From Escherichia coli (GTDB taxonomy: Bacteria > Pseudomonadota > Gammaproteobacteria > Enterobacterales > Enterobacteriaceae): a stretch of 64,000 nucleotides of DNA. The stretch lies in the NCBI RefSeq assembly GCF_030384885.1, contig NZ_CP128613.1; one strand, written 5' to 3'. The notes beneath the pieces were generated by a model. It worked only from the letters and a program-made list of their open reading frames with translations. It made no database searches and had not been told where the DNA came from. The position numbers and the translations under genes are program-made. This document shows, piece after piece, positions 59,405 through 61,990 of the stretch (positions are counted from its first letter, which is position 1; each line of letters begins with the position of its first letter).

Positions 59405-59758
59405 TTAACTACAAATATTCTTACTGTCTGCGGAACAATTTTGTCTGACGAGGTTACGGACAATCACCTGAACCTTTTCCTGTTCGCATCGCCAGGCCTG
59501 CTCAATAATTTTCGCCGCCCATGCTGGAATATGCGGCGATAAGCGATAATGAACCCACTTACCCTGCTTGCGGTCCAGCAATAGCCCACTTTCACGCAGT
59601 AATGCCAGATGGCGGGAGATCTTGGGCTGCGACTGATCGAGGGCAGTGCAGAGATCGCAGACGCATAACTCTCCCAGTTCGCTGAGCAGTAAAACGATGC
59701 CCAGACGGGTTTCATCGGCAAGAATTTTGAACAATTGGATGGGTAACAGAAATGACAT
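59405..59758 (-). CDS. arsR: Arsenical resistance operon repressor ArsR (117 aa)
   Basis: ORF track; ELCVCDLC metal-binding motif plus HTH. Confidence 0.95.
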   Translation of the reverse strand: MSFLLPIQLFKILADETRLGIVLLLSELGELCVCDLCTALDQSQPKISRHLALLRESGLLLDRKQGKWVHYRLSPHIPAWAAKIIEQAWRCEQEKVQVIVRNLVRQNCSADSKNICS

Positions 59759-59911
59759 ATTGCGCTCCTGATTGTTGCAGGTAGTGTCTCTCTTCGAAGC
59801 GGATAAGTCAAAAACATATATGTTTTAACGAATGTGTAAGTGCAGAGGAAGGTAATAGGTGTGAATTAAGCGTTGGGTGTTCATTTGAAAGGAAGTCTGA
59901 ATCAGGATGTA

Positions 59912-60005
59912 AAAAAACCGACTTTGCGTCGGTTTTTTACTCTTCAGCCAGAGTTGGTGGCTCTGGCTGGAGTGAGAATGCCCACATCTAACGGTTCAAT
60001 ACTAT
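59912..60005 (-). ncRNA. agrB: AgrB-like sRNA (antisense regulator of dinQ); ends approximate
   Basis: Repeat unit 'ggctctggctggagtgaga-tgcccacatctaac' whose minus-strand transcript is complementary to the dinQ leader copy at ~60395-60430; ends in hairpin ccgac-gcaaa-gtcgg plus T-run. Confidence 0.45.
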
Positions 60006-60147
60006 TAGCCAGTGGCTAACATTGCAAGCGTTAGCGATTTCTTCAGCTGGCGAAGGGACAGTTTGCTATACATGGTGGTGAAAGAGGATTGATATACTTT
60101 CATCGGGTCGCTGCCGTACCAAGCCTTGTCCGAATCCGGACGTAAAA

Positions 60148-60240
60148 AAACCGACTTCGCGTCGGTTTTTTTACTCTTCAGCCCAGAATTGGTGGCTCTG
60201 GCTGGAGTGAGATAGCCATCATCTAACACATCAATGCTAA
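60148..60240 (-). ncRNA. agrA: AgrA-like sRNA (antisense regulator of dinQ); ends approximate
   Basis: Second copy of the repeat plus the same terminator hairpin. Confidence 0.45.
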
Positions 60241-60291
60241 TACCATACTGAAACTATTGCAAGGACGTGCTGGTTTTATAACCCGCAAGTA

Positions 60292-60307
60292 CTGTATAAT
60301 TATCCAG
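60292..60307 (+). promoter_or_regulatory. LexA (SOS) box overlapping a TATAAT -10 element, upstream of dinQ
   Basis: CTGTATAATTATCCAG matches CTGT-N8-ACAG with one mismatch; TATAAT at 60295-60300. Confidence 0.6.
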
Positions 60308-60500
60308 TTAGCTCTGAGGCATTTTCACTCTGGTAATGCGCATAAACGCTTTCAAAGTCCTGGTCAGAAGTACGGGTGGTGCCGTTAACTGATGCTCTGG
60401 CCGGAGTGAGATTGCCCACATCTAACAATGAGGCATGCGCCGTGACAGGCAGTGGATGAGTAAGCGGATGCATTCTCACTCCATCGCATGGAGAAAACGG

Positions 60501-60584
60501 GTGATTGATAAAGCAATCATCGTTCTTGGGGCGTTAATTGCGCTGATGGAACTGATCCGCTTCCTGCTTCAGCTTCTGAACTGA
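60501..60584 (+). CDS. dinQ: SOS-induced type I toxin peptide DinQ (27 aa, GTG start)
   Basis: GTG-initiated ORF VIDKAIIVLGALIALMELIRFLLQLLN, hydrophobic single helix; followed by terminator hairpin. Confidence 0.7.
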   Translation: MIDKAIIVLGALIALMELIRFLLQLLN

Positions 60585-60601
60585 TAGCGGAAACGTAACT
60601 A

Positions 60602-60637
60602 AGGGCAAAGAGCACACCACTCTTTGCCCTTTAACAT
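60602..60637. terminator. Bidirectional terminator between dinQ and gor
   Basis: gggcaaagag-cacaccac-tctttgccc hairpin followed by T-rich tract. Confidence 0.55.
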
Positions 60638-61990
60638 TTAACGCATGGTAACGAACTCTTCTGCCGCCGTTGGGTGAATGGCGACGGTATTGTCGAAGTC
60701 TTTTTTGGTTGCGCCCATCTTCAGCGCCACTGCGAAGCCCTGCAACATTTCATCCATACCAAAGCCAATGCCGTGAATACCGACAATCTTCTCTTCCGGT
60801 CCAACGCACACCAGTTTCATGCGGCACGGCTGGCGGTGCGTGGTGACGGCGGTATACATCGCGGTGAAAGAGGATTTATACACTTTCACCTGATCGTCGC
60901 CGTATTGCTCGCGCGCCTGCGGTTCCGTTAAACCAACAGTCCCAATCGGCGGATGGCTGAAGACCACGGTCGGAATATTGCTGTAATCCAGATGCTCATC
61001 CGGCTTGTTATTAAACAGGCGTTCAGAGAGGCGGCGGCCTGCTGCAACTGCCACCGGTGTCAGTTCCACTGCGCCCGTGTTATCGCCCACCGCGTAAATA
61101 CCTTCAACGCTGGTATTTTGATATTTATCGACGACGATATAGCCTTTTTCGTTGGTTTTTACGCCAGCGGCTTCGAGGTTAATGTTGTCATTGGCAGGCT
61201 CACGACCAATCGCCCAAATCAGGCAATCCACCGTTTCACTGCGACCATCTTCCAGCTCCAGCGTCAGGCTGCCATCAGCATTTTTCACGACCGCTTTCGG
61301 GATGGCGTTGGTGTGCAACTGCGGACCTTCGGCGTTCATCACTTCGACCAGCGTTTCAGAGATCATCGGGTCGAAGCTGCGCAGCGGCGCATGTTTACGA
61401 ACAAACAGATGCGTCTTTGCGCCGAGGCCGTTAATCACACCCGCCAGTTCAACGGCGATGTAACCCGCGCCAACAACCGCTACACGCTCTGGCAAAGCAG
61501 GAAGGGCGAAGAAGCCATCGGAATCAATACCGTATTCCACGCCCGGAATATCCGGGTGGCTCGGGCGACCGCCGGTGGCGATCAGGATATGATCGGCCGT
61601 GATGGTTTCGCCGTTTACTTCAATGGTTTTGGCATCAACGAAGCGGGCAAAGCCTTTGATTACATCAACGTTATTTTTACCGAGCACGTTTTCATAGGAG
61701 GTATGAATACGGTCGATATAGGCGGTACGGCTGGCGATCAACGTTTCCCAGTTGAACTTATTGATGGTGGTATCGAAACCATAATCCGGGCCGTACATGT
61801 GGATCGCTTCACGGATTTGCGCCGCGTGCCACATCACTTTTTTCGGCACGCAGCCAACATTCACGCAGGTGCCGCCCAGTTCTTTGGCTTCAATCAGCGC
61901 GCATTTCTGACCGTACATAGCCGCGCGGTTGATGGAGGCGATACCGCCGCTGCCGCCGCCGATGGCGATGTAATCATAGTGTTTAGTCAT
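60638..61990 (-). CDS. gor: Glutathione reductase Gor (450 aa)
   Basis: ORF track; FAD/NAD-binding GxGxxG motifs and redox-active CVNVGC. Confidence 0.95.

Follow-up and report, generated by a model that had tools for sequence, protein, structure and literature searches.

Features of the locus

The 64-kb stretch of Escherichia coli DNA analysed here (64,000 nucleotides, hereafter the window) contains a gap of 879 bp between two − strand genes, arsR and gor, and the feature under study fills all of it (59759–60637). This region is almost certainly the chromosomal dinQ/agrAB type I toxin-antitoxin locus of E. coli, present in a rare allelic form. The assignment is based on two matches to the Rfam AgrB family, a match to the equivalog hidden Markov model for DinQ, conserved synteny with the toxin and RNA genes on opposite strands, and a full-length alignment to strain K-12. 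A dinQ-agrA-agrB locus had been proposed in the initial annotation, and the proposal is borne out by the synteny, by both sets of family matches (Rfam AgrB and NCBIfam DinQ) and by the RefSeq dinQ annotation of a strain with identical sequence. The system itself is already known, as the well-studied SOS-regulated DinQ/AgrB locus.

Positions 59759–60637 share 100% identity with E. coli strain 2013C-4282, in which RefSeq places dinQ at this site, and the whole region was found in 5,422 of 5,426 complete E. coli genomes, chromosomal every time and with zero plasmid matches. The alignment to the K-12 arsR-gor region, suggested in the initial annotation as a check, spans the entire region at 91.6% identity (megablast). 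The K-12 RefSeq order is gor, dinQ, agrA, agrB, arsR, and the synteny of the window is the same. An arrangement with the repeats on the dinQ strand of a reference genome, named in the initial annotation as the outcome that would speak against it, is not what K-12 displays, as its agr genes lie on the strand opposite dinQ. The open reading frames (ORFs) that flank the region are arsR and gor, annotated alike in 2013C-4282 and K-12, which is the site expected of the DinQ/AgrB system. Repetitive extragenic palindromic or insertion sequence elements as the source of the repeats described below are ruled out by the Rfam matches, the fixed chromosomal site and the K-12 annotation. The main features are as follows.

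59405–59758, − strand: arsR coding sequence, left flank; 117-amino-acid (aa) ORF, annotated arsR in 2013C-4282 and K-12
59911–59991, − strand: agrB small antisense RNA gene; 5' end U 59991, ends mapped from K-12 agrB by alignment
59999–60027, − strand: putative agrB promoter; −35 TTGCAA (60022–60027), 17-nucleotide (nt) spacer, −10 TAGTAT (59999–60004), read from the sequence
60067–60118, − strand (that of gor): gor coding relic between agrB and agrA; 83% identity over 52 nt to gor 60853–60904, pairwise E 1e-9
60144–60226, − strand: agrA small RNA gene, paralogue of agrB; 5' end U 60226, ends mapped from K-12 agrA, terminator 60142–60174
60234–60262, − strand: putative agrA promoter; −35 TTGCAA (60257–60262), 17-nt spacer, −10 TAGCAT (60234–60239), likewise read from the sequence
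60270–60285, + strand: candidate second, weak LexA operator, CTGGTTTTATAACCCG, placed by reading of the sequence alone
60292–60307, + strand: main LexA operator, CTGTATAATTATCCAG; overlaps the dinQ −10 TATAAT (60295–60300) and ends at the dinQ +1 (G, 60307)
60307–60637, + strand: dinQ primary transcript, +1 (G, 60307) to +331 (60637), numbered as in PMC5066626
60501–60584, + strand: dinQ ORF; GTG start, 27 aa, L16M; from translation, NF041472 and the RefSeq dinQ annotation in 2013C-4282
60601–60631, + strand: dinQ terminator hairpin (inverted repeat I6), equivalent to SL9, A295–U325, in PMC5066626; a terminator-like site was called on the − strand
60638–61990, − strand: gor (glutathione reductase) coding sequence, right flank; 450-aa ORF, annotated gorA/gor in 2013C-4282 and K-12

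The toxin gene and its promoter

The peptide encoded by the dinQ ORF (VIDKAIIVLGALIALMELIRFLLQLLN) scored 51.9 bits against the NCBIfam equivalog toxin_DinQ (NF041472.1; cutoff 30, E 6.6e-14) and shares 26 of 27 residues with K-12 DinQ, in keeping with a small hydrophobic single-helix toxin. The GTG-initiated hydrophobic ORF of 27 aa that the initial annotation had called dinQ is therefore that gene, and the ALMEL in place of ALLEL, left there as either an error or a variant, proved to be a real substitution (K-12 L16, window M16). M16 adjoins Glu17 of the polar patch described in PMC3567139. The dinQ terminator and the stop codon of gor stand back to back, and the hairpin probably ends transcription of the two convergent genes alike. 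Pfam has no model for DinQ, nor for a 59-aa GTG-initiated ORF (60300–60479, − strand) that lies antisense to the dinQ leader. This ORF, annotated by RefSeq as a hypothetical protein in 2013C-4282 and in many other strains, probably reflects a false gene call across the leader.

At the sequence level, the predicted LexA operator lies over the promoter of the toxin gene, as the system requires. The operator CTGTATAATTATCCAG, with its CTG-N10-CAG arrangement, matches 13 of 16 positions of the LexA consensus CTGTATATATATACAG and is the sole match with three or fewer mismatches in the 64-kb window, for which 0.19 were expected and 16 of 100 shuffles gave at least one; the near-consensus LexA box over a TATAAT at 60292–60307 in the initial annotation is thus upheld. 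The operator and SOS control of K-12 dinQ are described in PMC3567139, where a nearby second operator (HI 13.82) is also reported. The −10 hexamer is TATAAT in the window and TATGAT in K-12, and the A substitution also brings the LexA box nearer to consensus (13/16 versus 12/16).

Repeat copies and the agr genes

Three direct copies of one repeat family (D1) occupy 59948–60007, 60183–60242 and 60382–60441, and their conserved cores of ~33 nt end at 59991, 60226 and 60425, near the positions first given for them (~59958, ~60196 and ~60398). The consensus originally proposed for the repeat holds for the presence of three copies and fails in detail for copy 2 (agrA), which differs from the dinQ copy at 3 positions of a 9-nt block. 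Similarly, hairpin terminators are present beside copies 1 and 2 as had been claimed, and they are near-identical, not identical. The first, GTAAAAAAACCGACTTTGCGTCGGTTTTTTAC (59909–59940), has an A-run and a T-run on its flanks, and the second (60142–60174) is the same but for the loop TTCGCG and one extra T. The two thus differ by one loop base and one T, and they belong to a repeat family (D2) with 91% identity over 44 nt and to inverted repeats I1 and I2.

Both agr genes matched the Rfam AgrB model (RF02891; gathering score 40) over its full length on the − strand, at 59909–59991 with 90.0 bits (E 8e-16) and at 60142–60226 with 86.6 bits (E 4e-15), scores well above any that chance would give. 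The copies were assigned by synteny, with the arsR-proximal copy as agrB and the middle copy as agrA. AgrB comprises a first 32 nt that pair with the dinQ leader, a stem-loop and the Rho-independent terminator hairpin (59909–59940), and the minimum free energy (MFE) folds of both Agr RNAs contain the internal stem-loop and terminator that characterise the AgrB family. K-12 has identical −35 and −10 hexamers at both agr promoters, and its agrB start has been located by primer extension (PMC3567139). A promoter and terminator scan recovered none of the three known promoters and neither agr terminator, and this makes the scan uninformative and not negative evidence. The agr promoters were missed because only 8 of 12 consensus positions match, and the terminators were probably missed since the A and T runs are absorbed into the terminator stems.

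The gor relic between the two agr genes translates to YGSDPMKVYQSSFTTMY, which resembles a segment of Gor and suggests that a stretch containing gor took part in the duplication of agr. The Prokaryotic Genome Annotation Pipeline calls a hypothetical protein across this relic in some strains (L011, 646–984). Beyond the locus on the left, ~56.8–59.8 kb holds arsRBC, and the annotation of 2013C-4282 adds a second ArsR/SmtB-family regulator and a permease gene just past arsC.

The dinQ leader and its proposed switch

The mRNA numbering of PMC5066626 carries over to the window without insertions or deletions (anchored at G97–A105, GGAGUGAGA, 60403–60411), and outside a variable block the leader is nearly identical to that of K-12. 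The elements of the leader, all on the + strand and including the Shine-Dalgarno (SD) sequence, are as follows.

60322–60334: leader element 1 (nt 16–28), partner of element 2 in the inert +1 mRNA (stem S1), as defined in PMC5066626
60350: processing site (U), mRNA +44
60394–60425: Agr target, the third repeat copy (nt 88–119), from the D1 repeat and duplex prediction
60400–60412: leader element 2 (nt 94–106), inside the Agr target
60411–60419: hypervariable 9-nt block, ATTGCCCAC, inside the Agr target; alleles compared across 35 leader haplotypes
60420–60426: conserved AUCUAAC, directly 3' of the 9-nt block
60428–60435: 3' arm of the leader hairpin SL3 (nt 122–129), which covaries with the 9-nt block
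60473–60484: leader element 3 (nt 167–178; inverted repeats I3 and I5); its anti-SD CUCC pairs with the SD GGAG or, as element 3, with element 2
60488–60493: leader element 4 (inverted repeats I3 and I5), which holds the SD GGAG at 60490–60493
60490–60493: SD (nt 184–187, G184–G187)
60501–60503: GTG start codon (nt 195–197)
60601–60631: terminator (nt 295–325, A295–U325)

In K-12, LexA represses dinQ, and the +1 RNA is inert because pairing of elements 1 and 2 lets element 3 hide the SD; the +44 RNA is translated, with pairing of elements 2 and 3 freeing the SD (PMC3567139, PMC5066626). Pairing of AgrB with nt 88–119 closes the SD hairpin again and brings about cleavage by RNase III, and the DinQ peptide depolarises the inner membrane (PMC3567139, PMC5066626). 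The four elements needed for this switch are all present in the window. In the MFE fold of the +1 RNA, nt 17–28 are paired with nt 94–105 (stem S1) and the SD hairpin (173–176/184–187) is closed, so that the 1:2 and 3:4 pairings are both seen, and the 2:3 duplex is feasible at −21.5 kcal/mol, slightly stronger than in K-12 (−19.3 kcal/mol). When AgrB was folded together with the +44 leader, the predicted complex contained a 32-bp duplex and a closed SD hairpin. Elements 1 to 4, the SD and the GTG show little or no variation, and the element 3 and 4 columns are invariant in all 35 leader haplotypes.

By analogy with K-12, LexA bound at 60292–60307 would cover the −10 and hold dinQ off until SOS induction. 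The primary 331-nt mRNA would then be inert, with element 1 (60322–60334) paired to element 2 (60400–60412) and the anti-SD of element 3 sequestering the SD. Loss of the first 43 nt, which would create a new 5' end at 60350, would release element 2 to pair with element 3, and the opened SD would allow the 27-aa inner-membrane peptide DinQ to be made from the GTG at 60501. AgrB, presumed to be transcribed constitutively from the opposite strand (59991 down to 59911), would pair through its single-stranded 5' 32 nt with nt 88–119, pull element 2 off element 3, re-close the SD hairpin and create a substrate for RNase III.

Two further observations concern the 2:3 pairing. The AgrB RNA holds GCAUUCUCACUCCA (59968–59981), the same as dinQ nt 164–177 (60470–60483), which comprise element 3 and its flank, and AgrB thus contains a putative 14-nt mimic of element 3. 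Among block alleles that start with AATGC, the predicted 2:3 duplex reaches 13 perfect pairs and −24.7 kcal/mol versus −19.3 kcal/mol in K-12, with the S1 duplex strengthening in parallel.

Pairing of the Agr RNAs with the dinQ leader

Both agr genes have the properties of the antisense RNA of this system, as each lies upstream of dinQ on the opposite strand, does not overlap it and begins with ~31–34 nt complementary to the 5' untranslated region of the toxin mRNA. The complementarity of the − strand RNAs from copies 1 and 2 to the dinQ leader copy, anticipated in the initial annotation, amounts to 30 and 28 of 32 positions, respectively. The predicted duplexes over 32 nt compare with those of K-12 as follows.

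Window AgrB with dinQ nt 88–119: 30/32 Watson-Crick pairs, −59.1 kcal/mol
Window AgrA with the dinQ leader: 28/32 Watson-Crick pairs, −49.1 kcal/mol
K-12 AgrB with dinQ: 31/32 Watson-Crick pairs, −58.2 kcal/mol
K-12 AgrA with dinQ: 25 Watson-Crick and 4 G·U pairs over 32 nt, −42.7 kcal/mol

With two mismatches versus four for AgrA, AgrB is by predicted pairing the best-supported antitoxin in the window strain. AgrA is probably a weaker or inactive paralogue, as in K-12, though it is nearer to a cognate RNA than its K-12 counterpart.

A number of points weigh against such a direct transfer of the K-12 model. The activities assigned to the window strain are drawn from K-12 experiments and sequence conservation. 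The open-SD state of the +44 RNA is absent from plain MFE folds, in the window and K-12 alike; as folding closes the SD in both strains and so fails to discriminate, the ON state depends on published SHAPE (selective 2'-hydroxyl acylation analysed by primer extension) and mutational data. The AgrB duplex of the window also contains one mismatch absent from K-12, a U·U at leader nt 106, and the AgrA duplex is weaker than that of AgrB by just ~10 kcal/mol, a smaller gap than in K-12. The division of labour between the two small RNAs (sRNAs) is therefore less clear-cut than in K-12.

These last points bear on the strongest of the competing explanations, under which AgrA, or AgrA and AgrB jointly, would be the effective antitoxin in the window strain and the AgrB-only rule of K-12 would not transfer. 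AgrA is better matched to its target here (28/32, −49.1 kcal/mol) than in K-12 (25 Watson-Crick plus 4 G·U, −42.7 kcal/mol), and in several of the other genomes, O157:H7 among them, the dinQ block is closest to the agrA-position copy (listed below), so the cognate copy is strain-dependent. Despite this, AgrB of the window still outperforms AgrA by two mismatches to four and by ~10 kcal/mol, and the AgrA mismatches fall inside the block beside the 5' seed, the same place as in K-12 AgrA, which with more mismatches neither closed the SD nor blocked translation (PMC5066626). An antitoxin role for AgrA in this strain is accordingly judged unlikely, and AgrB is retained as the probable partner of dinQ.

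Differences from K-12 and structural polymorphism

The K-12 genes dinQ, agrA and agrB (b4613, b4712, b4713; Weel-Sneve et al. 2013, PMC3567139; Kristiansen et al. 2016, PMC5066626) occupy the same arsR-gor site in the same order and on the same strands as those of the window. The two loci also share the 27-aa GTG-initiated peptide but for one residue (window L16M), the position of the LexA operator, the four leader elements, the SD hairpin and the terminator, and both have two agr paralogues with conserved promoters and terminators. The substitutions between them are tightly clustered in the alignment. In the dinQ leader, GGAGTGAG is followed by the 9-nt block ATTGCCCAC in the window and AGAGTTCTT in K-12, a difference of 6 substitutions. 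The agrB block reads AATGCCCAC in the window and AGAGTTCTT in K-12, and the agrA block (ATAGCCATC) is the same in both. As both the leader block and the agrB block are altered relative to K-12, the target and AgrB have changed together. Outside the block, nt 127 in the 3' arm of SL3 is G in the window and A in K-12, and nt 28 of element 1 is U in the window and C in K-12.

Allele frequencies were obtained from short-query searches that required an exact 28-mer across the variant in the 5,426 complete E. coli genomes. The leader block allele ATTGCCCAC occurs in 13 genomes. The −10 change from TATGAT to TATAAT occurs in one, strain 2013C-4282, and the DinQ L16M codon occurs in one, the same strain; L16M is a real and essentially private variant.

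Larger differences were surveyed in 60 of the 5,422 matching genomes, taken at even intervals of rank. The full locus with two agr genes is present in ~70%, a single agr copy in ~15%, and a fusion between an agr flank and the dinQ leader in a further ~15%. The fusion falls exactly at the repeat, with the loss of both agr genes together with the dinQ promoter and nt 1 to ~90 of the leader, and the ORF is kept (L022 and L023). In these two genomes (NZ_CM133354 and NZ_CM172720), an agr terminator and its flank are joined to the dinQ leader and the dinQ ORF is still annotated. These genomes are also without arsR and arsB, and arsC abuts the locus. The locus is dispensable and prone to repeat-mediated rearrangement.

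Such losses could be taken to mean that the locus of the window is itself decaying or attenuated, with the private L16M beside Glu17 weakening the toxin and so tolerating or offsetting a private promoter-up change from TATGAT to TATAAT. The two changes do coincide in one and the same strain, each in 1 of 5,426 genomes, and repeat-mediated deletion has cost ~15% of E. coli genomes their agr genes and dinQ promoter, which shows that the locus can be dispensed with. On the other hand, Leu to Met is a conservative exchange in a membrane helix, the peptide with M16 still reaches 51.9 bits against the DinQ model, and the ORF, SD, switch elements and both agr genes with their promoters are intact. 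The A substitution moves the LexA box toward consensus as well as the −10, so net expression may not rise. Attenuation is thus quite improbable, and the locus is best regarded as an intact allele of dinQ/agrAB. The private pair of a consensus −10 within the LexA box and L16M next to Glu17 could be used to probe promoter strength and toxin activity.

Covariation of the 9-nt block across Escherichia

Besides the window, alleles were compared at 18 additional E. coli loci (complete or chromosome-level assemblies), at 8 loci in species-representative genomes, E. albertii and E. whittamii among them, and in 74 metagenome contigs. The test of matching between dinQ and agr blocks was based on isolate genomes, as several K-12-like metagenome contigs with a single agr copy (below) are probable assembly collapses. 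Conservation of the 200-nt leader averages 96% over 35 distinct haplotypes, and the variation is concentrated at nt 106–113 and nt 124–128. At least 10 alleles of the 9-nt block exist across Escherichia.

The block in the dinQ leader tracks the block in the agr genes of the same genome. Among 14 distinct isolate haplotypes, a small sample, the dinQ block and the best agr copy of the same genome differ at a mean of 1.00 of 9 positions, compared to a mean of 2.66 of 9 when dinQ blocks were shuffled among haplotypes, and none of 10,000 shuffles was as low as observed. Most of the residual differences are G·U-compatible. The matching copy sits at the agrB position in K-12, the window, L011, L014, L016, L024 and L025, and at the agrA position in L007, L012, L013, L015 (O157:H7 H2495), L017, L018 and L026. 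Genomes with a single agr gene usually match their one copy, E. albertii included. An exception in a complete genome is strain HH97, with a dinQ block that differs from agr at 3 of 9 positions.

The structure of the leader changes with the block. In SL3, pair 109:127 is CG in 16 haplotypes, UA in 15 and UG in 2, and pair 113:124 is CG in 19, UA in 8 and UG in 7. The SL3 cells were paired in 90.6% of cases versus at most 57% in slid controls, and the covariation score lay above all 500 shuffles; the haplotypes behind these values are related and recombinant, and the fold of the window itself supplied the SL3 structure. In stem S1, pair 13:109 is G-C in 16 haplotypes, G-U in 11 and A-U in 6. Copying from an agr gene cannot account for the 3' arm of SL3, which is not part of the repeated DNA, and this arm nevertheless varies together with the block. 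Both SL3 and nt 13 of stem S1 appear to carry compensatory changes that cannot be attributed to gene conversion.

It is an evenly balanced judgement whether the 9-nt stretch between GGAGUGAG and AUCUAAC serves as a strain-specific 'address', with the cognate agr copy dependent on the lineage and 'AgrA' as a spare or alternative antitoxin and not a dead paralogue. Were this the case, the arrangement of two sRNAs would let the locus switch partners by repeat conversion, with the cell never facing an unrepressed toxin. No description of allelic covariation or partner switching was found in PMC3567139, PMC5066626 or PMC8594479. That the three copies are a neutral remnant of tandem duplication and gene conversion, with blocks matched by conversion and not kept for pairing, is very improbable: the repeat units are direct and share flanks of >50 nt, deletions and fusions are often found exactly at the repeats (L022 and L023), the gor relic points to a duplication origin and conversion alone could yield matched blocks without selection, but the SL3 3' arm covaries with the block from outside the repeat through compensatory pairs 109:127 and 113:124, most differences between the agr and dinQ blocks are of the kind that leaves G·U in place of A·C, and K-12 genetics and biochemistry establish that the pairing is functional (PMC3567139, PMC5066626).

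Some of the metagenome contigs depart from the pattern of the isolates. Seven K-12-like contigs (L042, L047, L066, L073, L074, L080 and L081) have one agr copy that does not match dinQ. The junction in single-agr contigs lies inside a stretch of >50 nt common to agrA and agrB, and the single-agr K-12-like haplotype was found at 100% identity in no complete genome, with a best match of 99.2%. These contigs are probably short-read assembly collapses of the tandem repeat. A further contig, L088 (Ga0153982_1000001), holds a divergent dinQ-type locus with a promoter and leader that differ at many positions; its single agr copy and its dinQ leader share a unique block, AGTTCCATC, a matched pair outside the common E. 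coli alleles.

Significance and comparison with known systems

For the locus of the window nothing changes, as it is a textbook SOS-regulated system that was recognised from raw sequence. The allelic covariation is the sole part that might merit follow-up. It provides independent in vivo support, from natural populations, for the pairings between Agr and the dinQ leader, within SL3 and in part of stem S1. If the cognate antitoxin differs between E. coli lineages, this bears on how the AgrB-only result of K-12 is carried to pathogens such as O157:H7. Antitoxin naming by position in annotation pipelines may also mislabel the cognate copy; T1TAdb chooses the more stable of two candidate sRNAs by algorithm (PMC8594479).

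The dql (dinQ-like) genes dqlA and dqlB, from Enterobacteriaceae chromosomes and plasmids (Kristiansen et al. 2016), have the same leader architecture and a similar peptide. The window locus is distinguished from them by its canonical dinQ site and by its peptide, which scored 12.4 bits on the DqlB model (NF041473.1, cutoff 35) and 51.9 bits on the DinQ model. A 240-nt query of an agr gene and its flanks returned 83 matches on E. coli plasmids, which fits the plasmid dql loci.

Outside this family, the closest parallel is tisB/istR-1, the other type I toxin-antitoxin system of E. coli under SOS control, which, as described in PMC5066626, likewise combines a toxin mRNA under LexA repression, a primary transcript that is inert until processed at its 5' end (at +42, versus +44 in dinQ), a divergently encoded trans-acting antisense RNA that blocks translation at a distance, RNase III cleavage and a small inner-membrane peptide. 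The two systems differ in that tisB relies on a ribosome standby site and not on the swap between the 2:3 pairing and the 3:4 hairpin used by dinQ (PMC5066626). Their sequences and peptides are unrelated, with no similarity sought or seen apart from the DinQ-specific model match, and tisB/istR-1 has a single antitoxin gene where dinQ has two agr paralogues.

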